Shown: positions 6,592-42,385, numbered from the stretch's first letter. The stretch: 64,000 bases of DNA from Nocardiopsis rhodophaea (GCF_039530945.1 NZ_BAAAPC010000008.1:123234-187233), one strand, 5' to 3'. Numbers and translations: made by a program. The notes: generated by a model from the letters alone, not told the origin.

Positions 6592-6716
6592 CTTCTTAAC
6601 GCGGGCCCTAACGAGGGGGTTCTATGGTTGCCGGGCGTGAATCCACTAACTGCACTTATTCGAATAGCAAGATTGTGAAATTGAGCAGGTGATTTGCCGG
6701 GTTCATGGTCGGGATT

Positions 6717-9257: not shown

Positions 9258-9268
9258 GGAGGGCTCCT

Positions 9269-9607
9269 CTACAGATCGACGTTCGGGTTGCGCTTCAAGA
9301 ATGCGTCGCCGGAACGTTGGAAATTATGAGCATTTTCATCATCAGTTGCTCCGAGGGCGCCTCCTGCGACTTGGATGTTTCCGCCCATCTGCTTTCCGTG
9401 CTCGGCAACCTTCATCATGACCCCGATAGCGTCACCGCGGAAGAGTGAGTAGCCATCACCAACAGCCTGTTTCCCAGAAGCATCTTTTGCATTTTCACAT
9501 GCTTTTTTGAAAATTTGTTCGATATCCTTAAATTGCTCGGAAATTTCTACTGTCTGTTTGCCCTTTTGTTTGGCTGGTTCCGGGTTTCCGGCCGGTCCTT
9601 CGGCCAT
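9269..9607 (-). CDS. Small (112 aa) helical protein, first gene of the island operon (possible export helper/chaperone)
   Basis: ORF ends 12 nt upstream of the 846-aa gene start. Lys/Glu-rich helical sequence. Same strand and low-GC composition. Confidence 0.4.
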   Translation of the reverse strand: MAEGPAGNPEPAKQKGKQTVEISEQFKDIEQIFKKACENAKDASGKQAVGDGYSLFRGDAIGVMMKVAEHGKQMGGNIQVAGGALGATDDENAHNFQRSGDAFLKRNPNVDL

Positions 9608-9921
9608 GGGACTCCTGTCACAGGTGAAGGTAGGGAGGGGCAGGCGTGATCCGCACCGTGGTCACTCTGGGTGATGTCTTGCTGATTGAAGTAGCTAGTA
9701 CGTTTACCACAATCAGGCGGCATACTGCTCATGAAGTCTGCGTTGCGTGTGGTGTCCCTCGTTGACCGGTGTCACAGGGGCCATTAATGTCGCTGTGGGC
9801 GTGGTCCAGGGGGTATGTGGCGGTGTGCCGTCGGCGTTGGCCCGCCTGGGCCTTGGTGAGCGCGCGCGGGGCCAGCCCCCGCGCTTCCCCCAGTCTTGAT
9901 TCTCATTCCGAAGGGATGCAC

Positions 9922-10260
9922 ATGAGTGAACACGTTGGTTTGACTCAGGCAGATGCGCTCTCGAAGGGGGGTGAAGGCCTCGGGGAGTCGTCTGAGGGGC
10001 TGTGGCAGCAGCTTGGGCGGCTAATCGAGGACATGGACAAGGACAGCCAGTCGCTCCAGGGCAACGCGCTGCACAAGTTCCGGCAGGCGCGGGGGGAGCT
10101 GACGCAGCGGTTCGACGAGCTGATGACCTGGTGCTCGAACAACGGCATCAAGTTGAACGAGGGCCAGAAGCAGATCAACACCACCGACACCCAGGCCGGT
10201 GACGACTTCGGCAGCGCGGGCAACCAGCTCGGCGGTCTCTCGCGTCCGGTCAACGGCTAA
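9922..10260 (+). CDS. esxB: WXG100-family (EsxB/CFP-10-like) small secreted protein
   Basis: About 112-aa helical-hairpin protein (MSEHVGLTQADALSKGGEGLGESSEGLWQQLGRLIEDMDKDSQSLQGNALHKF...) directly upstream of a canonical WXG protein. AAGGG RBS. Lacks an exact W-x-G, as many EsxB proteins do. Confidence 0.55.
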   Translation: MSEHVGLTQADALSKGGEGLGESSEGLWQQLGRLIEDMDKDSQSLQGNALHKFRQARGELTQRFDELMTWCSNNGIKLNEGQKQINTTDTQAGDDFGSAGNQLGGLSRPVNG

Positions 10261-23694: not shown

Positions 23695-25518
23695 TTAGAA
23701 CGCCGATTCGGGGACGTCCATGAGGTCGAGCGTGGTGTTCTCGGCGATCTTGCGCTCGGCGGACAGGCGCGGCAGGACCTGGTCAGCGAAGAAGCGCGCG
23801 GCGGCGATCTTGCCGGTGTAGAAGTCCTTGTCGCTCCCCTCGGCCCCGTCGAGCTTCTCCAGCGCGATCGCGGCCTGGCGGAGCAGCAGCCAGCCCAGCA
23901 CCACGTCGCCGAAGCCCATGAGGAGGCGGGTGGCGTTGAGGCCGACCTTGTAGAGCTCGCGGGTCTCCTCGGCGGAGCGCATGGCGTCGCCGATCATGAT
24001 CTCGACGATCTTCTCGACGTCCGCGGCGGCCTCGGCGAGGAGGGCGCGCTCCTCCTTGAGTCGGCCGTTGCCGTTGTCGCTGCCGGCGAAGGCCTTGATC
24101 TCGCCCATCAGCGCGCCGAACGCCTGACCGTTGTTCTTCACGATCTTGCGGAAGAAGAAGTCCTGCGCCTGGATGGCCGTGGTGCCCTCGTAGAGGGTGT
24201 CGATCTTGGCGTCGCGGATGTACTGCTCGATCGGGTACTCCTGCAGGTACCCGGAGCCGCCCAGGGTCTGCAGCGACTCGGAGAGCAGGGCGTAGGACCG
24301 CTCGGAGCCCACACCCTTGACGATGGGCAGCAGCAGGTCGTTGTAGGCCTCCAGCTGGCTGTGGTCCTCGCCCGTGTGCTGGGCGATCTGGATCGCGTCC
24401 TGCTGGGTGGCGGTGTACATGACCAGCGCGCGCAGTGCCTCGGTGTAGGCCTTCTGCGTCATCAGGCTGCGCCGCACGTCGGGGTGATGGGTGATGGTCA
24501 CCCGGGGCGCGGTCTTGTCCGTCATCTGGGTGAGGTCGGCGCCCTGCTTGCGCTCCTTGGCGTACTCAAGGGCGTTGAGGTAGCCGGTGGACAGCGTGGC
24601 GATCGCCTTCGTGCCGACCATCATCCGGGCGTACTCGATAATGAGGAACATCTGCCGGATGCCGTCGTGCTTGTCGCCGACGAGGTAGCCGACGGCGGGG
24701 TGCTTGGCGCCGAAGGTCAGCTCACAGGTGGTGGACGCCTTCAGGCCCATCTTGTGCTCGACGTTGGTCACGTAGGCGCCGTTGCGCTCGCCGAGCGAGC
24801 CGTCCTCGTTGACCAGGAACTTCGGCACGAGGAAGAGGGAGAGGCCCTTCGTCCCGGGCTGGGCGCCCTCGGGTCGCGCCAAGACCAGGTGGAAGATGTT
24901 CTCGGTCATGTCCTGCTCGGCCGAGGTGATGAAGCGCTTCACACCCTCGATGTGCCAGGTGCCGTCGCCCTGGTCGGTGGCCTTGGTGCGGCCGGCGCCG
25001 ACGTCCGACCCGGCGTCGGGCTCGGTGAGCACCATGGTGGCGCCCCAGCCGCGCTCAATGGCCTGCAGGGCGAACTTCTTCTGCGCTTCGTTGCCCTCCT
25101 GCCAGAGGATGTTGGCGAAGCCCGGACCGGCCGAGTACATGTGGACGGAGGGGTTAGCGCCCAACACGAGCTCGGAGGCGGCCCACACGAGGGAGCGGGG
25201 CGCGCCGAGGCCGCCGAGCTCCTGGGGGAGGTCCAGGTTGTACCAACCGGCGTCCATGTAGGCCTGGTAGGACTTCTTCAGGCTCTCGGGGATGGCGACC
25301 GTGCTGGTCTTGGGGTCGAATACCGGGGGGTTGCGGTCGGCGTCCTCGAACGACTCGGCCACGACGCCGGTGGCGAGCCGGTTGACCTCGTCAAGGATGG
25401 TGCGGGCCGTGTCCTCGTCCAGCTCCTCGAACGGGCCTTTCCCCAGCACGTCCTGGCGCTTGAATACCTCAAAGAGGTTGAACTCGAGGTCACGGAGGTT
25501 GCTCTTGTAATGCGTCAT
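23695..25518 (-). CDS. Long-type acyl-CoA dehydrogenase (FadE5-like, about 608 aa)
   Basis: Translation from ATG at 25518 is [37 protein letters not shown]…, with ACAD N-terminal, middle and C-terminal domain signatures (…[20 protein letters not shown]…). Confidence 0.75.
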
Positions 25519-25542
25519 GGCGCGCGCTCCGCTGTGTCGTGG

Positions 25543-25578
25543 CCGCTGTCGGCGCAGTCCTCTACTGGCTAGTAACAA
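25543..25578. promoter_or_regulatory. 36-bp palindromic operator-like site (TACTGGCTAGTAACA-N6-TGTTACTACCCAGTA) upstream of the acyl-CoA dehydrogenase gene
   Basis: Near-perfect inverted repeat (14/15 arm match) 25-60 nt upstream of the ACAD start. Half-site TACTSGCTAGTAACA recurs at 42857. Confidence 0.45.
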
Positions 25579-25670
25579 TGACATGTTACTACCCAGTAGT
25601 AGTGCTTTGCCAGGGGCTGTCCCAACTGTCGGAATCGCCGCTCCCGCAGGGGCTTGCGCCGGATACGCCA

Positions 25671-25702
25671 CGGGGCGCCGGCCGGAAGCCCGGCCGGCGC
25701 CC
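25671..25702 (-). terminator. Strong GC hairpin (14-bp perfect stem GGGGCGCCGGCCGG/CCGGCCGGCGCCCC, 4-nt loop) downstream of the 1744-aa gene
   Basis: Perfect inverted repeat about 50 nt past the stop codon at 25753. No U-tract, as is common for actinomycete terminators. Confidence 0.5.
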
Positions 25703-25752
25703 CGGTCGTGGAATCGGGGTGATTCCCGTCATGTGTTCGCGCGGGCGGTCTC

Positions 25753-28700
25753 CTAGCGGTGGAACCGCTCCGCCGCCTTCTCGATAGCGGCCTCCACCGC
25801 CCCGACACGGTCGGCCAGCAGGCCGACGGCGCCCACCGCCCGCGTCATCGGGTCGTCCTCGGCTCCGCCCAGGGCCCGCCCGCGCTGGAAGCCCGCCTTC
25901 ACCTCGGCCCAGCGGCGCTCCTGCTCGGGCGTCATCGTCCCGCGCAGCTCGGCCAGCTTGAGCAGGTTGGCCTCCGCACCCGAGGTCAGTGTCTGCGCCT
26001 CCCCCAGGTAGTGGTCGTCGATCACCGCCTCCAGCTCGGCGTCGTTCATCACCGGAACGATCTTCTCCGCCAGCCGGTTCATGTTCCGGTACGACCCCTG
26101 CAGGCGGAACGGCGGCTCGGTGCGCGACTCCTCGGCCTGGGCCGCCGAGGCGATGTAGGCCTGGTTGTTGGCCAGCACCACCTGCCGCGCCCGCAGCAGC
26201 TTGCGCAGCACCGACAGGATCTGCTCCAGTTCCACCGGCGAGTAGGGGTGGGCCAGCTGGTCGGCCCGCACTGACTCGTCGCCCCCGGCCAGCCGCACCA
26301 GCAGCTCGATGTCGCCCCGGTCCCGCGTGGACAGCGGTGCCAGGGTCGGGTTCGAGGTCAGCGCGTTCTCGATGTAGCTCAGCGCGAACAGCTCGTCCTT
26401 GCCCGACATCACATCGCCGAGGTTGTACACATCCGCGCGGTTGGCCAGCATGTCCGGGACGCGGAACCGCTGCCCCTGCTCGGTGTAGGGGTTGCCGGAC
26501 ATGCACACCGCGAACCGCTTGCCGCGCATGTCGTAGGTGCGGGTCTGCCCGCCCCAGACGCCCTCCATCCGCCGCTGACCATCGCACAGCGAGATGAACT
26601 TCTGCAGCAGCTCGGGGTTGGTGTGCTGGATGTCGTCCAGGTAGAGCAGCACGTTGTTGCCCATCTCCAGGGCGAACGAGATCTTCTCGACCTCCTGGCG
26701 GGCGGTGGCGTCCGGCGCGTCGTCCGGGTCCAGCGAGGTGACCGCGTGCCCCAGCGCCGGCCCGTTGACCTTGACGAACACCAGGCCCAGCCGACTCGCC
26801 ACGTACTCCATCAGCGTGGTCTTGCCGTAGCCCGGAGGGGAGATGAGCAGGAGCAGACCGCTCTGGTCGGTGCGCTTGCCATCGCCCGCGGCGCCCAGCT
26901 GCTTGGCGAGGTTGTCGCCGATGAGCGGCAGGTAGGCCTCGTCCAGCAGCCGGTTGCGCACGAACGTGCTCATCACCTTGGGCCTGTACTCGTCCAGCCG
27001 CAGGCGCCGCCGCTCGTGCTCGATCAGTTCGTTGCGCTGCCGCTGGTAGTCCCAGAAGGCGGGCACCTCCTCGACGCGGAAACGGCGGGTGCGGGCCAGC
27101 AGCTCGTCGAGCCGGAACGACAGGGTCCGATCGGCGACGCGCGGGTGTGTCCCGAGCAGCCCCGTCACGGTCGCCGACATCGCCGCCGCGGAGTCGTACC
27201 GGGGCAGGTCCGCGCCGCACAGCTCGACGGCGACCGCTTCGGCCAGGTCGGCCTCGACGGTGGCGGCGTCGGCCTTCCCGTCGGCCGTGGACGCGGTGGC
27301 GGTCGCGGACGCGGCGGCGTTCGCCTCTGCATACGCCCGCAGCCAGGCCGTGACCAGCTGGTGCCGGGCGGCGAGGTCGTCGCCCAGCGCGCGCAGGTCG
27401 TCCTCGAACGACGGACCGGACGCGGAACGCGCGCCGCCGAGCGCGCGGCGGAACCGGTCCAGCAGCGTGCGGGCGCCCGCGCTGGTGACGAATCCGTCGG
27501 GCGCCGACGCCACCTCCTCGAACAGGTACTCCCCGGCGAGCTCCGCTACCCCGGCGTCGATGTCCAGGTGGGAGGAGGCGAGGAAGGACGCGATGGCCTC
27601 CGCCAGCTCGGCGCGCAGCCCCGCGATCGCCGCGGAATCGCGCACCCCGAAGACCTCGCGGGCGCGCGCCAGCGACGACGCCCGCGTCCGCCACGCCGAC
27701 CGCTGCTCCTTCCCGGCGCCGAACGCCCAGAACAGCTGGGCGGCCGACCGCGCCGCGGACGGGTAGCGCAGCAGCCCGGCGTCGGTGCGCAGGCGCAGCA
27801 GGACATCGAGGATCCGGGCGGCGTCGTGGTCGTGGACGCCCCGCTCGTAGCCCTCGTTGTAGCGGGACTCCGCCACCCGGCGGACCAGGGCGAGGAGGCC
27901 GTGCGCGGCGCCGTCGCCCTCGCCCTCGCCCTCGCTCGCGGCCGCGGCCGCGGCGGCGCGCAGCGTGTCGAGGCTCAGCCCCTCCGCGCCCGCCTCGGCC
28001 ATGGCCAGGATGGACGTGGCCAGGTACTCCGCCCGGTACACCTCAGCGGACTCCGAGACGACCAGCCGGTCCCAGAACCGGCGCGTCGCCTGGAACCCCG
28101 CGTCGAGCACGGGTGCGCGGAAGTCGGTCCCGGTGATGCTGACCGCCATGCGGCCGTCGTGCGGGACGAGGGTGAGGTCGATCGGCTGGGTGTTCACCGC
28201 GAAGCGGTGCCGCCCCAGGCGCAGGCTCTCGCCGCCGCCGTCGAACAGGTCGAGCCGGTCGCGCAGGGCCCGCCCGGCCTCCTGGCGGGCCGCCTTGACC
28301 CGGCCCTCCAGCTCCTCGGCGCGGACCTGGTCGCCCAGGCCGCGCAGCTGCTCGATGGTGGAGCGCAGCCGCGCCACCATCGGGTCGGAGGCGAAGTAGG
28401 TGTTGACATCGTCGAGCGAGTCCAGCGAGACGACCCGGCGCTGGACGCTGCCCAGGATCCGGTCGCCGGACTCCACCAGCCGGTCGGCCCGCCGGGCGCG
28501 CTCGTCCAGCAGCGCCTGCTTGCGGGTGGAGAACGCCTCGTAGACGTCCTCGCGCTTGGCGCTCAGCTCGTCGAGGAAGTCGTCGAACTCGCCGAAGCGC
28601 GACTCCAGGTTCTCCAACTGCAGCATGAGCCGCCCCAGCTGCTCGTCGCAGCGGTCCGGGGTGTCGGCGGCGGCCAGCGCTCCCGTGATGGCCTGCCCGA

Positions 28701-30987
28701 GCAGGGCGAACTCGGCCGCGAACTCGGCCCGGCCCTCGGTCTCCAGCAGCTGTTTGCGGCGCGCTTCCAGGGTGGCGCGGGCCCGGTTGATGCCGCCGAG
28801 GACCTCGCCGACGCGTTCCAGGATGCGAGTCCGCGCCTGGGTGTCGGCGATGTCGAGCGTGCTGACGACCTCGGTGACGACCTCCAGCCCCTCGCTCTGC
28901 GCGGCGAGCCGCTCGCCCACGGGCGCCGCGTCGGCCACCGTGGCGATGGACTCGGCCTCGGCGACCAGGCGGTCGACCTCCTCGTGGTACCCCGCGAAGG
29001 CGTTGTCGCCCGCCAGGAACGCCACGGCGCGACGCCCGACGGAGGTGAGCTCGTCCCTCAGGTCGCCGTCGAGCGTGTCGATGCGGCCGGTGTCGATGTA
29101 GCGCATCTCGCGCAGCGTCACCAGGTGGCCCTGGGAGCGGCGCAGCTCGGTGAGGAGCTCCACCCACGCGTCGGCGGACCGGGGCGTCTCGCCGCGCGAC
29201 CGCCGGAGCAGGGAGGCGATGGCGCGCGCCGCCTCGTCCAGTGCCGCGGCGGCCTGGTCGGTGAGCGCCCGCACCTTCTCGAACTCGTCGAGCACCTGCT
29301 CGGCGGTGGCGCGCACCTGCGACACCGGGTCGTGCAGCCCGCCCAGCTCGGTGTCGCCGAGCCAGTGGTAGTGGTCGAACACGCTGCGGCAGGTGGCGAT
29401 GAGCGCTTCGAACACCTCGGTCGACGGCGACATCTCGGCGACCATCCGGGTCACCGACAGGCAGTCGGAGATGCCGCGCACCAGCTCGGCGTTGCCGATC
29501 CGCTCCAGCGGGCCGGTGCCCACCGGCTGCGCGGCGGCATACACGTCGGAGACGTAGGGGGTCTGCCACACCTGCATGGGGTGCACCCGGGTCGGCTCGC
29601 CGCCGCCGTCGCGGAACACCACGAGTGTGCCGTCGTCGAACAGCGAGTAGCCGTGGCAGACGATCGGGGTGGCGACTTCCTTGCGGATCACGTTGTAGGG
29701 CAGCAGGAGGGTGCGCCCGTCGTGACGGGAGTGGAACCCGTAGAGCACGTCCTCGCCGTTGGGAGAGCGGATGACGCGCTCGAACTCCAGGCCGGTGACG
29801 TCGGTGTCGAAGGTCTTGGCCGTGCCGGTGGCCAGGTAGTAGCCGCCGGGGAAGATGATCCCCTGGTCCTCGGGGAGGCGCTGGCAGGCCTGCCCGATGC
29901 CGTCGAGCCGGAGGACGTCCTTGGTGCGGGTGTTGAAGACGAGGTGGCGCCACTCGGCCTCGTTGTAGGGGAGGATCCGCAGCAGGATGAGCGCGCCGAC
30001 CCGCGCGTAGTGCACCTGGGCGTCGGCCAGGCTCTGCAGCGGCTCGGCCACCGGCTCGCTGTAGATGCCCTGCCCGGACTCGGTGTTGTTCTCGATCTTG
30101 ATGGTCAGGTCGCCGCCGACCGTCTCGACGAAGAGCTGGTCGAGGATGGAGATGTGCGGGTGGCGCCCCAGGACGTGGTCGTCGCGGGTGGTCTCGGTCC
30201 ACGCGAAGTCGTGCGAGGGCGGGAAGACGTGGTCGCGCTCGCCCCGGGCGTCGAGGTAGGAGACCTCGCCGCGGGAGCTGACGCTCCAGCGCAGCACCTT
30301 GACGTCCGCGGTGCGCGGGCCGGTCTGGAAGACGGCGAGGAGCTTGCCCTCCACGTGCCGCAGCTGGAGCAGCCGGGTCTCGCGGTAGTAGCGGTACAGC
30401 TCGCCGAAGTCGCGCTCGAAGCGCGGGTCGCGCAGCAGTTCCGGCAGGGTGTCGTCCGCGGCGGGGTCGAACCCGAACGCGGTGGTGTCGCCCGCGCGCT
30501 CAAACCGGTGCAGCGCGAACACGTCGTCGACCCGGGTCTCGGTCTTCAGCCCGATGAAGACGTTGTAGCCGAACAGCATGTGCCCGCCGACGGACACGAT
30601 GTCGCGCGGCACGCAGTTGTGCTCGGTGCGGATGCGCTCGGTGCCGAGCAGCTCCAGCTCACTGCCGCCGAACACCTCCAGGCGGCGGGTGTTGAGCTCT
30701 TCGGCCCGCCGGGCGAGTTCGCCCGCGTGCTCGGCGAGTCGGGAGCGCAGCACCTCGTAGGTGCCGGCGTCGAGGCCGTCGGGGGCCTCGGGCGCGGGCG
30801 GGTGGGTCGTGGGGGCGTCGTTCGCGTCAGTGCCGTCTGCGCGCTCACGCTCCTCACTTGCTGCACCGCCGACGCTGCGGGGCCTTCGGCCGTTCGGCGT
30901 CGACGCTTCCGCTCGTTCGGTCGCGTTCGCTTCGGGGGCGGAGGAGCCCGCCGTGGCGGCGGACTCCTCGTTCACCACATCGGTCAC
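25753..30987 (-). CDS. Giant (1744 aa) protein with N-terminal beta-rich region, long helical/coiled-coil middle and C-terminal MoxR/AAA_5-like P-loop ATPase
   Basis: Continuous 5.2-kb ORF with high GC3. Walker A LLLISPPGYGKTTLMEYV is encoded around 26.83 kb. Walker B-like NVLLYLDDIQHTNPELL and an AAA_5-type sensor FAVCMSGNPY. GTG start 8 nt after the flotillin stop. Confidence 0.7.
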   Translation of the reverse strand: MTDVVNEESAATAGSSAPEANATERAEASTPNGRRPRSVGGAASEERERADGTDANDAPTTHPPAPEAPDGLDAGTYEVLRSRLAEHAGELARRAEELNTRRLEVFGGSELELLGTERIRTEHNCVPRDIVSVGGHMLFGYNVFIGLKTETRVDDVFALHRFERAGDTTAFGFDPAADDTLPELLRDPRFERDFGELYRYYRETRLLQLRHVEGKLLAVFQTGPRTADVKVLRWSVSSRGEVSYLDARGERDHVFPPSHDFAWTETTRDDHVLGRHPHISILDQLFVETVGGDLTIKIENNTESGQGIYSEPVAEPLQSLADAQVHYARVGALILLRILPYNEAEWRHLVFNTRTKDVLRLDGIGQACQRLPEDQGIIFPGGYYLATGTAKTFDTDVTGLEFERVIRSPNGEDVLYGFHSRHDGRTLLLPYNVIRKEVATPIVCHGYSLFDDGTLVVFRDGGGEPTRVHPMQVWQTPYVSDVYAAAQPVGTGPLERIGNAELVRGISDCLSVTRMVAEMSPSTEVFEALIATCRSVFDHYHWLGDTELGGLHDPVSQVRATAEQVLDEFEKVRALTDQAAAALDEAARAIASLLRRSRGETPRSADAWVELLTELRRSQGHLVTLREMRYIDTGRIDTLDGDLRDELTSVGRRAVAFLAGDNAFAGYHEEVDRLVAEAESIATVADAAPVGERLAAQSEGLEVVTEVVSTLDIADTQARTRILERVGEVLGGINRARATLEARRKQLLETEGRAEFAAEFALLGQAITGALAAADTPDRCDEQLGRLMLQLENLESRFGEFDDFLDELSAKREDVYEAFSTRKQALLDERARRADRLVESGDRILGSVQRRVVSLDSLDDVNTYFASDPMVARLRSTIEQLRGLGDQVRAEELEGRVKAARQEAGRALRDRLDLFDGGGESLRLGRHRFAVNTQPIDLTLVPHDGRMAVSITGTDFRAPVLDAGFQATRRFWDRLVVSESAEVYRAEYLATSILAMAEAGAEGLSLDTLRAAAAAAASEGEGEGDGAAHGLLALVRRVAESRYNEGYERGVHDHDAARILDVLLRLRTDAGLLRYPSAARSAAQLFWAFGAGKEQRSAWRTRASSLARAREVFGVRDSAAIAGLRAELAEAIASFLASSHLDIDAGVAELAGEYLFEEVASAPDGFVTSAGARTLLDRFRRALGGARSASGPSFEDDLRALGDDLAARHQLVTAWLRAYAEANAAASATATASTADGKADAATVEADLAEAVAVELCGADLPRYDSAAAMSATVTGLLGTHPRVADRTLSFRLDELLARTRRFRVEEVPAFWDYQRQRNELIEHERRRLRLDEYRPKVMSTFVRNRLLDEAYLPLIGDNLAKQLGAAGDGKRTDQSGLLLLISPPGYGKTTLMEYVASRLGLVFVKVNGPALGHAVTSLDPDDAPDATARQEVEKISFALEMGNNVLLYLDDIQHTNPELLQKFISLCDGQRRMEGVWGGQTRTYDMRGKRFAVCMSGNPYTEQGQRFRVPDMLANRADVYNLGDVMSGKDELFALSYIENALTSNPTLAPLSTRDRGDIELLVRLAGGDESVRADQLAHPYSPVELEQILSVLRKLLRARQVVLANNQAYIASAAQAEESRTEPPFRLQGSYRNMNRLAEKIVPVMNDAELEAVIDDHYLGEAQTLTSGAEANLLKLAELRGTMTPEQERRWAEVKAGFQRGRALGGAEDDPMTRAVGAVGLLADRVGAVEAAIEKAAERFHR

Positions 30988-30995
30988 CGCTTACC

Positions 30996-33005
30996 TCACT
31001 GCTTCGTGCCGTTGAGGGCGGCCAGGGGCGCCTCGGCGACGCCGAGGTCCCGCGCGGTGCCCAGCAGTTCGCGCAGCCGGCCCTCGTCGGGGCCGCCCGC
31101 CTGGATGAGCTTCATGAGCAGCGCGGAGATGGTGAGGTTCTTGACGTCCTCGGTGCCGACGGAGCCGAGCAGCCGGGACATGTCCTTGCTGAAGTCGGAC
31201 GAACCGTCGAGCCACGCGCCGCCCAGCGACTGCGCCACGTCGGAGTTCTGCACGAACCCGTCGACGGCCTTGCCCATGCCGATGGAGTTGACCATCCGAT
31301 CGAAGAACATGCCGTCGCCGCCGACGATGTTGATGTCGGCCTTCTCCAGGCCGGTGGCCAGCACCGTGGCCTGGGCTTCGGCGACCTGGCGGTGCACGTC
31401 GATCCCGGCCATGCGGACCTCCTTCTCGGCCTCCAGCCGCAGGCGGTACTCCTCGTGCTCGCGGCTGACCTGGTCAAGGGCGGCCATGGCGCCGGCCTTG
31501 TCGTTCAGGCCCTCGGCCTCGGCCTTGAGCTTCTCGCGGACGGCCTCGGCCTCGACGGCGGCCTTCTCCTTCATCACGGCGGCCTCGGCGCGACCGGTCT
31601 TCTCGATCACCTCGGCGTCCTGCTCGCGGACCTGGACCTCGGCCAGGCCGGCCGCTGCTGCCTCGGCCTGGACGCCTTCGGCGAGCTTGACCTTGGCGCG
31701 GGTGTCGAGCTCGGCCGCCTGCTCGCGGGCCTCGGCCAGGGTCAGCTCCTCGGCGGCCCTGTGCTTGGCGGCGGCCTCAGCGGCCTCGGCCGCCTTGATG
31801 TCCTTGACCAGGTTCTCCTGCGCCTCGGCCTCGGCGTGGATGATGATGGCCTGGCGCTCGCGCTCGGCCTCCTCGACCGCGCGCAGCTTCTTGATGTTCT
31901 CCTCCTGCTCGGCCACGGTCTTCTCGACCGCGATCCGCTCCCGGATAACCTCGGCGACCTCGCGCTTCTCGCCTTCGAGCTCCTTGTCCTTGGCGATGCG
32001 GGACAGCTCGGTTTCGCGCTCGCGGCCGATGACCTCCAGCATCCGGTCCTTCTCGATGCGCTCGGACTCGATGGAGATGACGCGCTCGCGGTTCTTCTCC
32101 GCGACGGCGATCTCCCGCTGCTGGTTCTGGTGCTGGACGCCCAGCTGCTCGTCGGTGCGCAGGTGCGCCTCCTGCGCCTTGAGCCGCTCCTCGGCCTGGA
32201 CCTTGGCGGTCTCGGCCTCCTCCCGGGCCTTGATGCTCTCGATCTCGCGCTTGGCCTTGGCCTCGGCTTCCTCGCGGCGGCGCTCCAGCTCGGCCAGGGT
32301 CTCCGCGGACTCGGTGTCCTGGCGCTGGATCTCCTTCTGCCGCTCGTTCTCCAGCTCGTTGGTGCGCTTGTGCTGCTCGGCGGTGAGGGCGGTGATCTTG
32401 CTGATGCCCTGCGCGTCGAGGATGTTGTCGCGGTCGAGGCGGTGCAGCGGCGTCTGCTCCAGGAAGTCGATCGCCGCTTTCTCGATGTAGTAGCCGTTCA
32501 GCTCGGTGCCGATGAGCGCGATGATCTGGTCGCGGAACTCATCGCGCTTGGTGTAGAGGTCCACGAAGTCGAACTGCTTGCCGACGGTCTTGACGGCCTC
32601 TGAGAACGTCGCGTTGAACAGCTCCTGCAGGGTCTCCTGGTTGCTGGCGCGCTCCGTGCCGATGGACTGGGCGACCTTCAGGACGTCCTGCGGGGTGGGG
32701 TTGATCCCGACATAGAAGGTGATGCTGATGTCCGCGCGGATGTTGTCGCGGCAGATCAGCCCTTCATTGCCGTCGCGCTCGATGAGCATCGTCTTCTGCG
32801 AGATGTCCATGACCTCGGCCTTGTGCAGGACGGGGAGGACAACCGCTCCGGTGAAGGTCACGTCGACCTTCTTCACCTTGGAGATGATCAGCGCCCGGCC
32901 CTGTTCGACCTTGCGGAACAGCCGGGCGATGGTGAAGAGGAGGCCGAGGACGATGAGGAGGGCGGCGGCGAAGAGGACGCCGACGCCGGCGGTGATGGTT
33001 TCCAT
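30996..33005 (-). CDS. Flotillin-like SPFH/band-7 protein with very long Glu/Ala/Lys/Arg-rich coiled coil (669 aa)
   Basis: N-terminal TM anchor (METITAGVGVLFAAALLIVLGLLFTIARLF). The SPFH core has YqiK/FloT-like motifs (…VLPVLHKAEVMDISQKTMLIERDGNEGLICRDNIRADISITFYVGINP…), then a heptad-rich helical region. Confidence 0.75.
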   Translation of the reverse strand: METITAGVGVLFAAALLIVLGLLFTIARLFRKVEQGRALIISKVKKVDVTFTGAVVLPVLHKAEVMDISQKTMLIERDGNEGLICRDNIRADISITFYVGINPTPQDVLKVAQSIGTERASNQETLQELFNATFSEAVKTVGKQFDFVDLYTKRDEFRDQIIALIGTELNGYYIEKAAIDFLEQTPLHRLDRDNILDAQGISKITALTAEQHKRTNELENERQKEIQRQDTESAETLAELERRREEAEAKAKREIESIKAREEAETAKVQAEERLKAQEAHLRTDEQLGVQHQNQQREIAVAEKNRERVISIESERIEKDRMLEVIGRERETELSRIAKDKELEGEKREVAEVIRERIAVEKTVAEQEENIKKLRAVEEAERERQAIIIHAEAEAQENLVKDIKAAEAAEAAAKHRAAEELTLAEAREQAAELDTRAKVKLAEGVQAEAAAAGLAEVQVREQDAEVIEKTGRAEAAVMKEKAAVEAEAVREKLKAEAEGLNDKAGAMAALDQVSREHEEYRLRLEAEKEVRMAGIDVHRQVAEAQATVLATGLEKADINIVGGDGMFFDRMVNSIGMGKAVDGFVQNSDVAQSLGGAWLDGSSDFSKDMSRLLGSVGTEDVKNLTISALLMKLIQAGGPDEGRLRELLGTARDLGVAEAPLAALNGTKQ

Positions 33006-33222
33006 CCAGTGGTCTCTCTAGCGAGGGCGCGGCTCGGGGAATTCGGGGGCCCTGGCGCGCCGGTCGGGCCGCGACACGGCGGGCGGTGCAGGCCGCTGTC
33101 TGTTATCTCGGACGCTGCCACCGGGATGCCGGTTCCCGGCAGTCAGGGATAAAACGGGTATTTCGGGTGTTCTGGTGTCGGTCCGGTCCGCGGGCGCGGG
33201 GACGAGCGCAAGTCCGAGCGCG

Positions 33223-33876
33223 CTACGCCGAGGCGGATCCCGGATCGAGTGATCGGTCGAACGGGGTGACGAGGTAGACCCCGCTGTCGGCGTCGTAATC
33301 GAAGACGAGAGCGGTGTCGCCGGAGGAGAGGGTCTCCCCGCCGATGGTGCGCACCTGCACGATCGACGCCGTGCCGTTCGCCGCGGTGATCTCCGCCTGC
33401 CCGAACGCCTCGTCGGCCCGGCCGGTGCGGATCACGCAGGTCGAGCCGACGAAGTCGGTGTGCGCGGCGCCGGGCTCGTCGCCGGGCAGGAAACGGCGCA
33501 GGCCCATGACAACGCCGCTGGTGACCAGCCACGCGAACAGCACCGCCGCCACCAGGACCACGAGCCCCAGGGCGATGAGCGCGGGTGTGGACGCCTCGTT
33601 CAGATCAAGCAGCACGGTTCCCACCAGGGTCGCGAACCAGGACAGGGTGATCAGTAGGGACAGCACCACGGTGACCGGGACCCCGCTGAGGCCGGTGGCC
33701 GACAGCAGTCCGGAGAGGCCGCCGGCGGTGCCGGTATCCGCGTCGACGTCGACGTCGAGCGCGTCCATGCCGACGGCACCGAGAACCACGAAGATCCAAT
33801 AGGCGAAGACGACCAGCAGCATGAAGCTGAAGAGCGCCGTGGGGAAGCCGAACGCCGTGCTGATGAATTCACCCAT
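33223..33876 (-). CDS. NfeD-like membrane protein with C-terminal OB-fold
   Basis: From ATG at 33876, several TM helices are followed by GQAEITAANGTASIVQVRTIGGETLSSGDTALVFDYDADSGVYLV, typical of the NfeD short-form beta-barrel. Lies 217 nt upstream of the flotillin gene on the same strand. Confidence 0.55.
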   Translation of the reverse strand: MGEFISTAFGFPTALFSFMLLVVFAYWIFVVLGAVGMDALDVDVDADTGTAGGLSGLLSATGLSGVPVTVVLSLLITLSWFATLVGTVLLDLNEASTPALIALGLVVLVAAVLFAWLVTSGVVMGLRRFLPGDEPGAAHTDFVGSTCVIRTGRADEAFGQAEITAANGTASIVQVRTIGGETLSSGDTALVFDYDADSGVYLVTPFDRSLDPGSASA

Positions 33877-34079
33877 GATCTGCCGCGTCGACCCCCCCGT
33901 CGTGGTTGCACACCGCCAGGCGCCGGTGACTGCGGGATGAACCTTATCGAACGCCAGAGACGTTTTGTGAGGCGACGGGATGAATTGTCCGGTTGTGGTC
34001 AACGTGCCGGGCGAGCCGAACCGGACTCGCCCGGCACACGCCGAAGACTACGAATTCCCGACGACGCACAAGGAGCGAA

Positions 34080-34326
34080 CATGCGGGCAGTGTGTGAGCG
34101 GCAGGAGGGCCACAAGCGGACCGGGCGGCAGCTGAGCTACGAGGAGCGGGCCCTGCAGCAGAACCGGAGGTTCGTCCACTGGGGGTGGCTGCTGCCGGTG
34201 AGCGTCGCGATCGGCGCGGTGGCGACGGTGCTCACCGGCGTGAGTGTGTGGACCTCCGCCGGGTGCGCCGCCGGCATCGCGCTGTGGTTCATCGCCGGCG
34301 GCCTCGCGCTGTGGGCGCGGAGGTGA
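34080..34326 (+). CDS. Small two-TM membrane protein
   Basis: AAGGAG RBS 6 nt upstream of ATG at 34080. Hydrophobic helices WLLPVSVAIGAVATVLTGVSVW and IALWFIAGGLALWA. Confidence 0.4.
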
Positions 34327-34660
34327 CGGTGCCGCGTCGGGCCACCCGGACGGCCGCGGCCAGCGCCGCCAGGGTGAGCGTTCCGAAAACCAGGCCGGTA
34401 CCCGCATAACGTGCGGGGGAGTAAGCGCGAAGTCAGCGTGTTTGACGCCGACCAGAATCGCTCGGTGCGTGCGGCTTTCTCCTCAGGCCTTCTCCCCGAG
34501 GTGTCGAAGCACACCAAGCAGCGTGTCGCGGCGTGGGGTCTCGCGCAGCGAACAGCCGCTGGGCAAACCGTCGCATTCGAGATCGAAAAGCTGGAGCCGT
34601 TGGCAGAGCATCCGATCATGCCGGTGCGCGAGATCGCGGGAATCGCTCCCTAGTGGACCG

Positions 34661-35110
34661 ATGGAGAGGATCCCACCGAGTGGGCGCGGGGGCAGCGTGC
34701 GGGGGGTAGCAAGCGCGTCTATCCCGACTCGGACGTGTTGCCTCAACGTCATCCTCGCGCGTAAGGACACCAACCCGGAGCGCTATGAGACCAGCCTCGG
34801 TGTCTTTGAGAAGGGGCAGCGTGGCGACGACCACATCGTCGCTTCGTCACTGATCCGAGCTGAGGTTGGCTGTTCGGGGAGACGGCGATCTTCTGACATA
34901 GGTGCTGCGCAGCGCGATCGTGCTCGCACGACCATCGATGCGTGGTCCGCGCGATCCGGCATACAGATGGTGGCAGTGGAGCGTTTCGTGGTCGACAAGG
35001 CCATCGAATTCGCGTCGGAATATCGCCTGCGGCCGAATGACGCCGTTCACTCGGCGTCTGCGGTGCTGACCCGCTGCGGCTACTTCTTCTGGAACAAGAA
35101 GGACTTCCCG
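34661..35110 (+). pseudogene. Decayed VapC-like PIN-domain toxin gene (frameshifted, no in-frame stop near the domain end)
   Basis: The C-terminal PIN signature RLRPNDAVHSASAVLTRCGYFFWNKKDF is in one frame. The N-terminal acidic motif KRVYPDSDVL is in another frame about 34712-34738. A 1-nt indel near 34738 would join them. A possible antitoxin-like ORF lies upstream at 34411..34653. Confidence 0.35.
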
Positions 35111-35182
35111 ATGGGGCCCCCGCGCATGGCGATGCCCCGGCTCCTCAGCCGGGGCATCGCCATTGCGGCGGAAAGCGGCGCG

Positions 35183-37801
<2,619 letters not shown>

Positions 37802-38026
37802 CGCTTCGCCGCCCCCTAACAGCAGAGTCAGTCCTTGAGGTGGTGTAATCCGAACGTCCGGCCGAAGCCCGCCGGCCCGGTCGCCGCGAAAAAGGTGGGC
37901 CGGGGCGCCGGGTGGAGTCCCGCGGCCGGTGGGGATCGTGTGACGCCCCCAGGCCCTGCGGATCCCCGCTCGCGAGGTGCGGCGGCCCCTCCCGCGATCA
38001 ACGGGAAACCGTGTGCGCCGCGTGGG

Positions 38027-38464
38027 TCACGCGTCGTCTTCGGGGGGAGGCGCGGTATTGAAGATCGTCACACGTGTGTGCCGGAGCGGCAGCAGCTCGT
38101 TGCCCTGCTCCGGCCCGCTCTGGGCCAGCCGACGCGCGACCGCCGTGCGCGCCGCGTCGAGTTCGTTGCGCAGGTGGAAGAGGTGCTCGCGCAGCTCGTC
38201 GACCTCGCGCTGGAGCTCCAGGATGCGCTTGATGCCGGCGAGGTTGATGCCCTCCTCCTGGGACAGCCTCTGCACCTCGCGCAGCATCTGGACGTCGCGC
38301 ATGGAGTAGCGCCGCCCCCGCCCCGCGGCGCGGCCCGGTGAGACCAGTCCGAGCCGGTCGTACTGGCGCAGCGTCTGCGGGTGGAGCCCGGACAGCTCGG
38401 CGGCGACGGAGATCACGTAGACCGGGATGTCCTCGCCGAACCCTCGCTCAGTCATCGCATTCAC
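38027..38464 (-). CDS. hspR: Heat-shock repressor HspR (MerR family)
   Basis: MerR-type HTH ([29 protein letters not shown]) followed by a coiled-coil. Start overlaps the dnaJ stop (ATGA). Confidence 0.8.
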
Positions 38465-39615
38465 ATTCCCTTCGCCCGCGTCTCCAAGTCACGGCGCGGG
38501 TCCTGGTCCGCCGTGGCCGCCCGGAACTTCTCCAGGGCGGCGCGGGCGTCCTCGCTCAGCGTCTTGGGTACCGACACCTCAACGGTCACGAGCAGGTCGC
38601 CCTTGGTTCCGTCGCGGCGGTCCGCGCCCTTGCCCCGGACCCGGAACGTGCGCCCGTTCGGCGTGCCCGGGGGGATCTTCACCGTCACCGGCATCCCATT
38701 GAGGGTCGGCACGCGCACATCGGCGCCGAGCGCCGCCTCGGGGAAGGTCACCGGGACGGTGATCGTCAGGTTGTCGCCGGTCTTGCCGAACACTGGGTGC
38801 GGCTGCACATGAACCACCACGTAGAGGTCTCCCGCCGGCCCCCCGTGTTCACCCGGCGCGCCTTTGCCCTTGATCCTGATCCGCTGGCCGTCGGAGACCC
38901 CCGCGGGGATCCTCGTCTGGACCGTACGGGTGCTCTTCCCCCGACCGCTGCCGTTGCACACGGGGCAGGGGTCGTCCACGACGAGCCCGCGCCCCTTGCA
39001 CTGACTGCAGGGCTCTGAGAGGGAGAACCCTCCCAGAATGGTGCTGTCGTGCCCGGTGCCGGAGCACGTGGGGCACATGCGGGGCGCGGACCCGGCCCGG
39101 GCCCCCGTCCCCTTGCAGCTGGCGCAGGCGGCGTCACTGGTCAGCTTGAACGACCGGGTGGCGCCGCGCGCCGCCTCGCTGAAGGTCAGCGTGGTCTCGG
39201 TCTCCACGTCGGCACCGCGCCGCGACCGCGTGCTGGTGCGCCCCCGCCCGCCGAACAGGCCGCCGAACAGGTCGCTCAGCCGCTCGCCGCCGACCCCGCC
39301 GCCGGTCGGGCCGTGCCCGAACAGGTCGCCCATGTCGAATCCGCCCGGACCGGTTCCCCCGCCGGGCTGGTAGGCGCCGCCGAACAGCGACCGCGCCTCG
39401 TCGTACTCCTTGCGGCGCTGTTCGTCCGACAGGACGCTGTAGGCCTCGGAGATCTCCTTGAAGCGCTCTTCGGCCTTCGGATCGGCGGTGTTGGCGTCGG
39501 GGTGGTTTGCGCGCGCGAGCTTGCGATAGGCCTGCTTGATCTCGTCCTGCGTGGCCGTCTTTGAGACCCCGAGGACCTTGTAGTAGTCCTTCTCCAGGTA
39601 GTCCTTGGTGCTCAT
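38461..39615 (-). CDS. dnaJ: Chaperone DnaJ
   Basis: J-domain with HPD (…[13 protein letters not shown]…), G/F-rich region, and four CxxCxGxG zinc-finger repeats. Confidence 0.85.
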
Positions 39616-39744
39616 CGACGCTTGCCTACTCCCGCTTCGCGCTCGTTACCGGTGGGGCGGTGCGGTCCGCGCTACCGATCCTGCCCACTGCTCACCTGGT
39701 TCACCGCCCCGGGTGCCACGCGGGCGCCCGGGGCGGTTCACTCG

Positions 39745-40461
39745 CTACTTCTTGTCGTCGCCGTCGGGCCCGGACTCGGCGGCCGGTGTCTCGGCCGCAC
39801 CCTCCGGGGCGGAGGCCGCCTCCGCGCCACCCTCCGGCTCGGTGCCCTCGTCCTCGGCGGGCCCCGCCACGACCACGCGGGCCGGGCGGATCACCCGTTC
39901 TCCGATGACGTACCCGGGCTGGAACACCTCGATCACTGTCGGGGTGGTGGCACCCGGCGTCGGCACCATCGTCAGGGCCTCGTGCACGGTGGGGTCGAAC
40001 TCGTCGCCCTTGTCCCCGTACTTCTTCAACCCCAGCTTGGTGACCGCGGACTCCAGCGCCTCGCCGACGGACTTGAACCCGCCGTTGAGCTCGTCGTGTT
40101 CGCGGGCCCGCCCGATGTCGTCCAGGATCGGCAGCAGCTCACCCAGAACCTGGGCGAGCCCCTGCTCCCGAACCGCCGCCCGGTCGCGCTCGACCCGCTT
40201 GCGGTAGTTGGCGTACTCGGCCTGCAACCGCTTGAGGTCGTTCATCAGCTCGGCGGCCTGCTGCTTGGCCTCGGCGAGTTCCGCGCTGCTGTCCTCGGCA
40301 GCGGGAACCTCCGCCGTGCCCGCCGATTCGGCCGCCTCCGGGGCGACGGTCTCTCCCGCCTCCGGGGCCCGCAGCTCACCGGTCTCGGGATCGATACGAC
40401 GCTTGTCGCGGATCACCGGGCCCTGCTGCTCGTGACCGTTCTCGTTCTCCGGCAGCGCCAT
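39745..40461 (-). CDS. grpE: Nucleotide exchange factor GrpE
   Basis: Preferred start MALPENENGHEQQGP… (ATG at 40461; the upstream in-frame extension is Arg-rich). GrpE core …AEYANYRKRVERDRAAVREQGLAQVL…. Confidence 0.75.
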   Translation of the reverse strand: MALPENENGHEQQGPVIRDKRRIDPETGELRAPEAGETVAPEAAESAGTAEVPAAEDSSAELAEAKQQAAELMNDLKRLQAEYANYRKRVERDRAAVREQGLAQVLGELLPILDDIGRAREHDELNGGFKSVGEALESAVTKLGLKKYGDKGDEFDPTVHEALTMVPTPGATTPTVIEVFQPGYVIGERVIRPARVVVAGPAEDEGTEPEGGAEAASAPEGAAETPAAESGPDGDDKK

Positions 40462-40498
40462 TCGTTTGCGCCTCCTTGCCTTCCGCGTACCGGACGGA

Positions 40499-42385
<1,887 letters not shown>

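Follow-up and report, generated by a model that had tools for sequence, protein, structure and literature searches.

Pairs of genes encoding a small NfeD-like membrane protein and a flotillin are represented by yqiJ-yqiK in E. coli and yuaF-floT in B. subtilis, and neither operon includes an ATPase gene of the kind considered here. MoxR proteins such as NorQ, CbbQ, and RavA are about 300 amino acids in length and usually are paired with a VWA protein. ATPases of this class are not known to take polymers apart or to thread substrates in the manner of Vps4. An operon class that joins the two themes has already been defined by comparative genomics, in which CesT/Tir, PspA, flotillin, YqiJ/YuaF, and AAA+ genes are brought together and ATP-dependent membrane dynamics is proposed (Ravi et al. 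2024, mSystems; PMC11237479). The class includes an "abbreviated" form without PspA; operons limited to the flotillin, YqiJ, and AAA+ genes occur widely and might cooperate with a PspA encoded elsewhere (PMC11237479). [quoted passage not shown] That report does not describe the AAA+ clade, its structure, or the regulation of the operon, and a literature search yielded no experimental work on this operon type and no paper that mentions DUF3686 or PF12458.

The locus analyzed here lies in a 64,000-nucleotide stretch of DNA from Nocardiopsis rhodophaea (hereafter called the window), and it combines genes for a YqiJ-type protein, a flotillin, and an AAA+ ATPase with a beta-propeller and coiled coils in a single operon. 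Because no CesT/Tir-PspA pair was found in the window, this operon corresponds to the abbreviated form. A first-pass annotation of the locus was confirmed in nearly every detail, but the association of NfeD, flotillin, and ATPase genes is not new, given the operon class described above; the observation that its function is experimentally uncharacterized still stands. What can be added to the published description is the MoxR class of the ATPase, its spectrin-like rods, an unusual DD Walker B motif, an ECF-type promoter-like motif, and counts of conserved synteny. The reading favored here, to which a probability of roughly 0.6 can be assigned, is that the locus is an envelope-stress module whose ATPase remodels flotillin or PspA scaffolds.

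Layout of the Locus

Three co-oriented open reading frames occupy the minus strand where they were first placed (Table 1), and their GC3 values (0.88-0.96) are of the coding type. The junction between the flotillin and ATPase genes, tgaGGTAAGCGgtg, is exactly as had been reported, and a Shine-Dalgarno-like GAGG overlaps the stop codon of the flotillin gene. The NCBI model of the large protein begins at V79 and comprises 1666 amino acids (the N. rhodophaea entry is 100% identical). However, residues that are conserved throughout the family (L72..G75-T76-Y77-E78) lie on the N-terminal side of V79, and therefore the 1744-residue form is the better gene model. The only in-frame start codons 5' of V79 are the GTG codons 1, 4, and 5, and residues 1-62 are not conserved.

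A strong terminator-like hairpin begins 48 nt past the stop codon of the ATPase gene, and its stem is 15 bp rather than the 14 bp originally counted. The 88-nt region containing this hairpin folds with a predicted energy of -53 kcal/mol (z = -4.07), and only 1 of 200 shuffled sequences folds as well. A simple terminator scan missed the structure because a T run is absent.

Both the 217-nt gap that separates gene 1 from the flotillin gene and the CCGGGA-N7-TCCCGG repeat within it are present. The repeat had been viewed as a hairpin, and gene 1 accordingly was suspected of being transcribed separately. Compared with shuffled sequences, the gap shows no excess folding stability (z = 0.15), and the repeat is better read from the alignment as overlapping a promoter-like motif, GGAAC-N17-CGTC. 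The suspicion of separate transcription fits the presence of this motif, whereas the hairpin does not qualify as a significant structure. The 5' end of the motif precedes the flotillin ATG by 131 nt, and its nucleotides constitute almost the only invariant columns in an alignment of the gap. In all 11 of the wide-gap loci from the Nocardiopsis/Streptomonospora clade, it lies 147-209 nt ahead of the flotillin gene, compared with a background rate of 0.03 hits per kb; within the window alone, the 5 matches observed versus 2.45 expected are not significant. The motif was not found at the corresponding position outside Nocardiopsaceae, and in this family it would appear to be a candidate ECF-type promoter for the flotillin and ATPase genes. 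Wide gaps are mainly a feature of Nocardiopsaceae, with gaps of ~140-210 nt also present in Micromonospora and Thermomonospora, whereas the two genes abut or overlap in most other genera. An inverted repeat, TGACC-N6-GGTCA, forms an invariant block about 110-125 nt upstream of gene 1 in eight Nocardiopsaceae loci and is a candidate operator.

Table 1. Features of the operon, with positions counted from the first nucleotide of the window
Feature	Position	Strand	Description	Basis
Gene 1, YqiJ/DUF1449-type NfeD-like membrane protein	33223..33876	-	217 aa from ATG	
Gene 2, YqiK-type flotillin	30996..33005	-	669 aa	
Gene 3, MoxR-class AAA+ ATPase (predicted)	25753..30987	-	1744 aa; soluble; DUF3686 + DUF7902	
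N-terminal helix and beta-propeller	29365..30762	-	DUF3686, residues ~76-541	Pfam, AF2, Foldseek
First helical rod	28246..29334	-	residues ~552-914 (start ~492 in AF2); DUF7902 at 662-746	
Small beta domain after first rod	28111..28227	-	residues 921-959	
Second helical region	27004..27837	-	residues ~1051-1328; short beta element; leads into ATPase	AF2
AAA+ module and C-terminal helical lid/extension	25756..26859	-	residues ~1377-1744	
Walker A	26821..26823 (K1389)	-	G1386-T1391, K1389	
Terminator-like hairpin	25671..25704	-	15-bp G+C stem, GCUU loop, no U tail	folding
ECF-sigma-type promoter-like motif	33111..33136	-	GGAACCGGCATCCCGGTGGCAGCGTC (GGAAC-N17-CGTC)	alignment
Inverted repeat, candidate operator	33986..34001	-	TGACCACAACCGGACA (TGACC-N6-GGTCA)	alignment

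Conservation of Gene Order

The flotillin gene is upstream of the ATPase gene in 79 of 80 actinobacterial loci, and the small gene immediately precedes the flotillin gene, in the same orientation, in 77 of the 80, as it does in the window (E. coli yqiJ likewise precedes yqiK); the exceptions are all due to losses at contig ends. The flanking clpB and acyl-CoA dehydrogenase genes are not conserved across these 80 loci. Stop and start codons within the trio overlap or are tens of nucleotides apart in most genera. A second set of 80 loci was drawn from metagenomes, where the ATPase is 31-39% identical to P0257, a protein that is itself 28% identical to the window protein. Even at this distance, the flotillin gene is directly upstream in 59 of the 62 loci with sufficient flanking sequence and the small gene in 51 of 55, although L098 and L141 have an ATPase gene with no flotillin gene upstream. 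The same trio is present in Flavobacterium, Sphingobacterium, Planctomycetota, and Deinococcus, and on the Pseudomonas megaplasmid pQBR103.

These three genes are a tightly coupled and widely conserved operon, as the first-pass annotation had proposed for the window and as its suggested survey of actinobacterial neighborhoods bears out, and their adjacency is not due to chance. The idea that the ATPase is simply an accidental neighbor of an ordinary NfeD-flotillin pair could draw on the E. coli yqiJK and B. subtilis yuaF-floT pairs, which work without an ATPase. This view is refuted, and its probability is negligible, given that adjacency, order, and strand are retained in ~140 independent loci from at least five phyla.

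The Small Membrane Protein and the Flotillin

The product of gene 1 has three hydrophobic segments followed by a beta-rich C-terminal domain of ~70 amino acids that may resemble the partner-binding domain of NfeD. Its orthologs share a conserved start (MGEF...), and the UniProt name is DUF1449. Membership in the YqiJ family, together with a putative NfeD-like C-terminal domain, agrees with the NfeD-like label given at first, but it becomes visible only at the level of the family. The window protein alone has no match in Pfam even at E <= 10, and a profile built from actinobacterial sequences only reaches 22.6% probability against E. coli YqiJ. In contrast, a broad cross-phylum ortholog profile (A8) aligns with YqiJ at 95.6% probability (hhalign, E 1.3e-8). 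Pfam YqiJ_N is matched by 7 of 31 orthologs, and also by the ortholog from L086, while the Pfam NfeD C-terminal domain, which bears on the OB-fold proposed at first, is matched by 3 of the 31 (best E 0.0025). No match was obtained to the E. coli NfeD protein YbbJ, and no match was found in a PDB sequence search.

The flotillin scores 23.4 bits against Pfam Band_7, which is 0.2 under the 23.6 cut-off, and its ortholog profile aligns with E. coli YqiK over the transmembrane, SPFH, and coiled-coil regions (hhalign 99.9%, E 3.5e-34). These comparisons bear out the call of a 669-residue flotillin and point to an SPFH domain of the YqiK type. A single hydrophobic segment (residues 1-33) provides an N-terminal membrane anchor, which is followed by the SPFH domain, the coiled-coil region, and a conserved C-terminal domain. 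Residues 206-540 are composed of 22% E, 19% A, 10% R, and 8% K, and on this composition they can be read as a long E/A/R/K-rich coiled coil. The protein is longer than its homolog YqiK (553 aa) and shares only ~24% identity with it, whereas identity is 43-54% for the flotillins encoded beside the ATPase in other phyla. This unusual conservation in the company of the ATPase suggests direct co-evolution of the two proteins.

A Giant AAA+ ATPase

The large protein matches Pfam DUF3686 (746 bits, E 1.5e-224) and DUF7902 (105.5 bits), both above their cut-offs, and the same architecture recurs in the 1372 clusters that make up the family at 50% identity. AAA_5 is matched at 24.4 bits against a gathering cut-off of 22, and thus the profile search that had been set as a check leaves the AAA_5 identity standing. 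No transmembrane segment was found. The predicted succession of a beta-rich N terminus, a helical middle, and a C-terminal AAA_5/MoxR-type ATPase is upheld by AF2 models (pLDDT 85) and fold matches. The N-terminal helix and propeller are modeled at residues ~112-475 with pLDDT ~90, and its DSSP string is suggestive of about seven blades with four strands each. Foldseek matches for the propeller include IFT-A, the clathrin terminal domain, YncE, paraoxonase, and prolyl oligopeptidase (E 1e-6 to 1e-3). The rods have a spectrin-like fold, and the second helical region, which spans model residues 16-293 of the C-terminal AF2 model, has pLDDT mostly of 85-95.

The AAA+ core is modeled at residues ~1377-1565, and its closest structural similarity is to MoxR, dynein, and midasin, with NorQ and CbbQ as the nearest solved folds. 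The Walker A lysine is encoded where it had been expected, near 26.83 kb. Other motifs are Walker B (D1451-D1452), sensor-1 (N1499), and a putative arginine finger (R1517), and the AAA+ motifs are invariant across phyla. Walker B is DD, not DE, in every family member, a substitution that may favor slow, switch-like hydrolysis rather than motor activity. The models thus place the module in the MoxR class (AAA_5), but the protein differs from described MoxR proteins by its DD Walker B and by the propeller-and-rod extension of ~1370 residues that precedes the module, and no VWA partner was seen among the neighbors in any locus inspected.

Since NorQ and CbbQ are MoxR remodelers that activate other enzymes, the ATPase might serve as a MoxR-type chaperone or maturation factor for a third-party client, with the flotillin acting only as a platform and neither the flotillin nor the PspA scaffold serving as substrate. 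Such a factor could, for example, assemble or repair a membrane protein complex or insert a cofactor in flotillin microdomains. A propeller on long rods would suit client capture, and the chaperone-like role discussed for band-7 and AAA+ partners (PMC11237479) is in keeping with this explanation. However, no client gene is conserved beside the trio in the 80 actinobacterial loci, and neither the lack of a VWA partner nor the cross-phylum conservation of the ATPase-paired flotillins is what this explanation would lead one to expect. It therefore is regarded as rather unlikely.

Databases name the product of gene 3 a "DNA repair ATPase" (Pfam DUF3686 + DUF7902 + AAA/AAA_5), and PF12458 is described as "ATPase involved in DNA repair." This name probably arose from coiled-coil similarity to SbcC/RecN-type proteins. 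Aside from the names, UvrA and MutL genes reside near the Sphingobacterium copy, but this nearness is not conserved. Domain searches of the protein revealed nothing of the DNA-binding, nuclease, or SMC/RecN type, matches to RuvB and RFC involve the P-loop only and are far below cut-offs, and the conserved neighbors encode membrane proteins rather than repair functions. Coupled with the lack of any paper on the family, these findings make a role in DNA repair hardly credible.

Links to PspA and Membrane Stress

Outside Actinobacteria, the trio often is found beside genes for PspA (an ESCRT-III family member), CesT/Tir-like proteins, or TelA. Of 6 non-actinobacterial loci examined, 5 have a PspA gene next to the trio, as do 15 of 49 metagenomic loci. 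Other recurrent neighbors are CesT/Tir-like, TelA, and DUF350 genes and those for spermine or glutathionylspermidine synthase. Searches by tblastn with six PspA queries and one CesT/Tir query, which are distant and thus of limited sensitivity, found neither gene in the window or within 8 kb on either side of the 80 actinobacterial loci. Any link to PspA in these organisms therefore would act in trans. The floA, floT, and pspA genes of B. subtilis belong to the sigma-W (ECF) regulon, and pspA of M. tuberculosis is sigma-E dependent (PMC8144471).

Among the roles put forward at first, membrane remodeling and envelope stress are favored by the linkage to PspA, CesT, and TelA and by the ECF-type motif, whereas nothing was found to sustain the third proposal of a defense-like sensor/effector. 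As an anti-phage or conflict system, the flotillin and YqiJ-like protein would sense perturbation by phage and the ATPase would act as an effector or abortive-infection switch. PspA first became known as a "phage shock" protein. In addition, TelA and TerB genes, linked to conflict systems by some authors, adjoin the trio in L084 and L088, and one copy is carried by the megaplasmid mentioned above. In opposition to these hints, PADLOC returned only weak, P-loop-only IetA matches for the ATPase (E 0.004-0.009) and nothing for the other proteins, there was no match in a phage collection, and the ATPase gene turned up in only 13 of 72,556 plasmid records, mostly megaplasmids or chromids. Nor were domains typical of nucleases, proteases, or toxins identified. 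Across actinobacterial orders, identity is 68-79% for the ATPase and 66-83% for the flotillin, and values of ~70% at a stable single locus look like vertical inheritance under purifying selection, not like a fast-turnover defense island. A defense function is very improbable.

A Proposed Mechanism

A functional link between the three genes is well supported. Beyond this link, we infer a mechanism in which the machine is scaffolded on the flotillin, and with it physical contact between the components, ring formation, the substrate, the direction of remodeling, and induction by stress. Under the envelope-stress reading, and on analogy with other SPFH proteins, the flotillin, anchored by one N-terminal helix, would use its long coiled coil to build a cup-like or cage-like structure on the cytoplasmic side of the membrane. 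The YqiJ-type protein, with its three transmembrane segments and putative NfeD-like domain, would be its membrane partner. The MoxR-class AAA+ module probably forms a ring, from which each subunit would extend a spectrin-like rod tipped with a beta-propeller. The propeller or rod might dock on the coiled coil or C-terminal domain of the flotillin, such that ATP binding and hydrolysis could assemble, reshape, or dismantle the scaffold. Where a neighboring gene encodes PspA, the same action might be exerted on a PspA/ESCRT-III polymer at damaged membrane. In Nocardiopsaceae, the flotillin and ATPase genes would appear to have their own promoter of the ECF-sigma (envelope-stress) type; they are coupled in translation and are followed by a strong terminator-like hairpin.

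The role envisioned for the ATPase would be that of Vps4 for ESCRT-III, and it would echo the AAA+ ring and SPFH cage of FtsH-HflK/C. Both comparisons are functional analogies only, based on an AAA+ ATPase that is tied genetically to an SPFH scaffold and, in many genomes, also to PspA as an ESCRT-III homolog. Vps4-type proteins combine an MIT domain with a classical-clade AAA module, whereas the product of gene 3 lacks MIT and protease domains as well as a transmembrane anchor, and its AAA+ module is assigned to the MoxR class. A 2025 review has noted that a Vps4-like ATPase appears to be absent from bacteria (PMC7619361). A more speculative and somewhat doubtful proposal is that the DUF3686 protein is the missing bacterial counterpart of Vps4. 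In this form, a MoxR-class ring with six spectrin-like, propeller-tipped arms would establish a sub-membrane lattice with flotillin cages, and ATP would drive the assembly or disassembly of flotillin and PspA/ESCRT-III polymers during membrane repair. If true, this operon would represent a new class of ATP-driven membrane-remodeling machine that is distributed from Actinobacteria to Bacteroidota and Proteobacteria.

Conservation of the three-gene unit

The association of a small membrane protein gene (gene 1), a flotillin gene (gene 2), and a giant AAA+ ATPase gene (gene 3) extends far beyond Nocardiopsis rhodophaea. A genome scan returned 80 actinobacterial loci from Nocardiopsis, Streptomonospora, Micromonospora, Phytohabitans, Streptosporangium, Nonomuraea, Saccharothrix, Actinosynnema, Thermomonospora, Lolliginicoccus, and other genera. 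The ATPase gene has the flotillin gene ahead of it in 79 of these 80 loci, and in 77 the small gene comes before the flotillin gene; each exception is truncated by a contig end. In most of the genera, the genes abut each other or share 1-4 nt. The other neighbors in the window, clpB and the acyl-CoA dehydrogenase gene, are not conserved across these loci.

The same trio is present in distant members, including Flavobacterium, Sphingobacterium, a Planctomycetota MAG, and other MAGs, as well as on a Deinococcus megaplasmid and on Pseudomonas fluorescens pQBR103, where the flotillins are 43-54% identical to that of the window. A metagenome scan seeded with distant ATPase members added another 80 loci. 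Among the 62 with 2.3 kb or more of upstream sequence, 59 have flotillin as the immediate upstream gene, and a YqiJ-like gene is present in 51/55. The adjacency that the first-pass annotation had taken to be meaningful is thus kept across Actinobacteria, other phyla, and metagenomes, and this synteny refutes the view that the ATPase gene sits beside the flotillin pair by chance. Two metagenomic loci (L098 and L141) carry a full-length ATPase gene and ample upstream sequence with no flotillin or YqiJ-like gene.

Features of the locus, of its surroundings in the window, and of the related plasmid cluster
Feature	Position	Strand	Remarks
Gene 1, small membrane protein	33223..33876	minus	217 aa from conserved ATG
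Gene 2, flotillin	30996..33005	minus	669 aa
Gene 3, giant ATPase	25753..30987	minus	1744 aa
Terminator-region hairpin after gene 3 stop	25671..25704		15-bp G+C stem; z = -4.07 vs shuffles
ECF-sigma-type promoter-like motif GGAAC-N17-CGTC	33111..33136	minus	Overlaps inverted repeat of first-pass annotation
Inverted repeat TGACC-N6-GGTCA	33986..34001	minus	~110-125 nt upstream of gene 1; conserved in Nocardiopsaceae
dnaK, grpE, dnaJ, hspR, then clpB	35183..42385	minus	Heat-shock genes directly upstream of trio
Acyl-CoA dehydrogenase gene	23695..25671	minus	Downstream of repeat at 25570..25591
846-aa ORF in low-GC islet	6717..9257	minus	Sole Pfam match EspA-like TPR
L170, P. fluorescens SBW25 plasmid pQBR103	84437..97641		Ten genes: YjfI, PspA, rhomboid, DUF2491, DUF350, DUF1190, glutathionylspermidine synthase, YqiJ-like gene, SPFH gene, giant ATPase

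The gene products

The three open reading frames lie exactly where they had been placed from the sequence alone, all with coding-type GC3 (0.88-0.96; window GC ~0.69). The gene 3 protein shows 100% identity to the N. rhodophaea entry, and the products of genes 1 and 2 match records of this species exactly. The 8-nt spacing between the flotillin stop and the GTG of gene 3 (tgaGGTAAGCGgtg) was confirmed, with a Shine-Dalgarno-like GAGG overlapping the flotillin stop codon. The NCBI model of gene 3 starts at V79 and is 1666 aa long. Because residues conserved family-wide (L72..G75-T76-Y77-E78) fall upstream of V79, and are therefore cut off in the public annotation, and because the only in-frame start codons upstream of V79 are GTGs at codons 1, 4, and 5, the longer model originally given is preferable. 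Residues 1-62 form a non-conserved low-complexity extension.

The gene 3 protein matches the Pfam domains DUF3686 (E 1.5e-224), DUF7902, and AAA/AAA_5. In two AlphaFold models (pLDDT 85.3 and 84.7), an N-terminal helix is followed by a beta-propeller of ~360 residues and ~420 residues of long helical bundles, after which come a small beta domain, another helical stretch, and the AAA+ core, which bears a helical lid and a C-terminal extension. These data bear out the layout first described, with a beta-rich N terminus, a helical middle, and an AAA_5/MoxR-type C terminus. Across phyla, the catalytic motifs do not vary. The Walker B motif is of the form hhhhDD (LYLDDIQH), with DD rather than DE (D1451-D1452; 26632..26637, minus strand), and is unchanged from Actinobacteria to Bacteroidota. 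It resembles the DnaA-type DDIQ motif, and the invariant DD may indicate slow or regulated, switch-like ATP hydrolysis.

No transmembrane segment was found in the gene 3 protein, and an NCBIfam search gave no informative match. The DUF3686/DUF7902 family comprises 1372 clusters at 50% identity that share an architecture of 1600-1900 aa. A 1040-aa relative elsewhere (L087:8001-11123) has DUF3686 and DUF7902 without the AAA+ module; it is encoded among Por_Secre_tail (T9SS cargo) genes of an 8.9-Mb genome, has no flotillin or YqiJ-like neighbors, and may be a truncated or repurposed variant.

Databases name this protein "DNA repair ATPase," a label that finds no support. Its matches among PDB sequences (Cdc48, Rix7, RuvB) are at P-loop level only, as is the RuvB/RFC resemblance, and with no DNA-related domain detected and no conserved repair neighbors, a DNA repair function is extremely improbable.

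The flotillin scores 23.4 bits against Pfam Band_7, just below the 23.6 cut-off, and its ortholog profile matches E. coli YqiK with 99.9% probability. The protein has a single N-terminal hydrophobic anchor and a central E/A/R/K-rich stretch of ~330 residues; as a single sequence it matched no PDB sequence, and as a profile it matched only the QmcA coiled coil. The gene 1 protein alone has no match in Pfam or among PDB sequences, and comparison with the E. coli NfeD protein YbbJ revealed no similarity. Gene 1 is nonetheless predicted to encode a YqiJ/DUF1449-type, NfeD-like partner with a putative OB fold, because its cross-phylum ortholog profile matches E. coli YqiJ (95.6%, E 1.3e-8) and because Pfam YqiJ_N and the Pfam NfeD C-terminal partner-binding domain are matched by 7 and 3 of 31 orthologs, respectively.

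PspA linkage and genomic context

PspA/IM30, a bacterial ESCRT-III homolog, adjoins the trio in 5/6 non-actinobacterial loci that were looked up and was found in 15/49 metagenomic loci. None turned up in the window or in the 8-kb surroundings of the 80 actinobacterial loci. Other recurrent partners outside Actinobacteria are CesT/Tir- or YjfI-like chaperones, TelA, DUF350, DUF4178, and polyamine-synthesis genes, and a divergent XRE-type regulator accompanies the non-actinobacterial clusters. A recent review states that a Vps4-like ATPase appears to be absent from bacteria (2025; PMC7619361).

Operons joining a CesT/Tir-PspA pair with three further genes, one of them encoding a 3TM YqiJ/YuaF protein, have been described (Ravi et al. 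2024; PMC11237479), together with more widely distributed abbreviated operons that consist of the last three genes only and may act with PspA encoded elsewhere. The window locus is of this abbreviated form, one ortholog among thousands of a described operon type and not a new discovery. The pQBR103 array unites two PspA operon classes that Ravi et al. defined. No experiment on the ATPase family was found in the literature: searches for DUF3686/PF12458 found no paper naming it or reporting an experiment, and none was found linking "DNA repair ATPase" with flotillin, or YqiK/YqiJ with AAA+.

A defense-like role had also been put forward. However, the gene 3 family has no match in a phage collection and occurs in 13/72,556 plasmid records, mostly megaplasmids or chromids, and a PADLOC defense-system search returned nothing meaningful, which makes a defense system very unlikely. 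A heat-shock operon including the trio was rejected because its proximity to dnaK-grpE-dnaJ-hspR/clpB is not conserved in other genera.

Regulatory elements and noncoding sequence

The gap between genes 1 and 2 has the 217-nt length reported earlier, but at the RNA level it shows no structure beyond chance (z = 0.15). The intergenic hairpin proposed there was rejected as a structural element because the gap folds no better than shuffled sequences. Gaps of at least 190 nt are largely found in Nocardiopsaceae, with the exception of Thermomonospora echinospora (190 nt), and several Micromonospora loci have gaps of ~140 nt. In the Nocardiopsaceae gap alignment, hardly any columns are invariant apart from those of two blocks, GGAAC (its G, A, and C) and CGTC. 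In 11/11 related loci of the Nocardiopsis/Streptomonospora clade that have a wide gap, the motif GGAACC-N16/17-(G)CGTC is located 147-209 nt ahead of the flotillin gene, with a background rate of 0.03 hits per kb. GGAAC-N17-CGTC has the shape of an ECF-sigma (SigE/SigW-type) promoter. The motif is not significant in the window taken alone, and the weight of this putative promoter comes from its conserved position. The B. subtilis genes floA, floT, and pspA are under sigma-W control, and pspA of M. tuberculosis depends on sigma-E (PMC8144471).

The hairpin 3' of the ATPase gene is real, being far more stable than shuffled controls. The repeat upstream of gene 1 is a candidate operator, with a conserved TAGAGT-like -10 element further downstream. 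A sigma-70 promoter scan of the locus found no sites, three terminator-like matches in the locus scan are at chance level, and searching the full window for Rfam families and tRNAs gave nothing. Between gene 1 and the clpB stop, ~1.3 kb (33877..35182) lacks Rfam families, tRNAs, and any ORF whose GC3 looks coding; only the upstream motifs of gene 1 are accounted for.

Two features lie outside the trio. A perfect inverted repeat, TAGTAACA-N6-TGTTACTA (25570..25591), in an A+T-richer patch, looks like a regulator operator, and the true start of the acyl-CoA dehydrogenase gene would then be downstream of the listed GTG at 25671. At 6000..10000, a low-GC islet (GC 0.49-0.54 vs ~0.69 elsewhere) that looks horizontally acquired contains the 846-aa ORF and a second ORF of 112 aa with no match.

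Proposed function and significance

An envelope/membrane-stress module is the best-supported reading, and the probability that the locus is a functionally coupled module of this kind can be put at roughly 80%. The first-pass annotation was largely right in this respect, given the recurrent PspA linkage and the conserved promoter-like motif. Flotillin assemblies would be built together with the YqiJ-like partner, and the soluble MoxR-class ATPase would be recruited to them via its propeller or rods, with ATP being used to build, remodel, or dismantle the flotillin scaffold, as well as the PspA scaffold where present. The synteny, the folds, the PspA linkage, and the conserved promoter-like motif are observed; contact between the proteins, formation of a ring, the identity of the substrate, and induction by stress are inferred. 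It is a tentative proposal that the ATPase acts on the flotillin or PspA scaffold itself. A MoxR-type chaperone that acts on a third-party client within flotillin domains is an unlikely alternative.

Flotillins and PspA have a central part in the organization and repair of bacterial membranes, yet the way in which they are assembled and recycled is not settled. Among energy-consuming partners of one flotillin subfamily, the gene 3 ATPase, very strongly conserved, present in many phyla, and misnamed in databases, shows the most consistent linkage. A corrected gene model, a domain map with confident structure models, and an assigned AAA+ clade are now available, together with target residues for catalytic mutants and a candidate promoter for envelope stress; they make a published genomic prediction directly testable in a culturable actinomycete.
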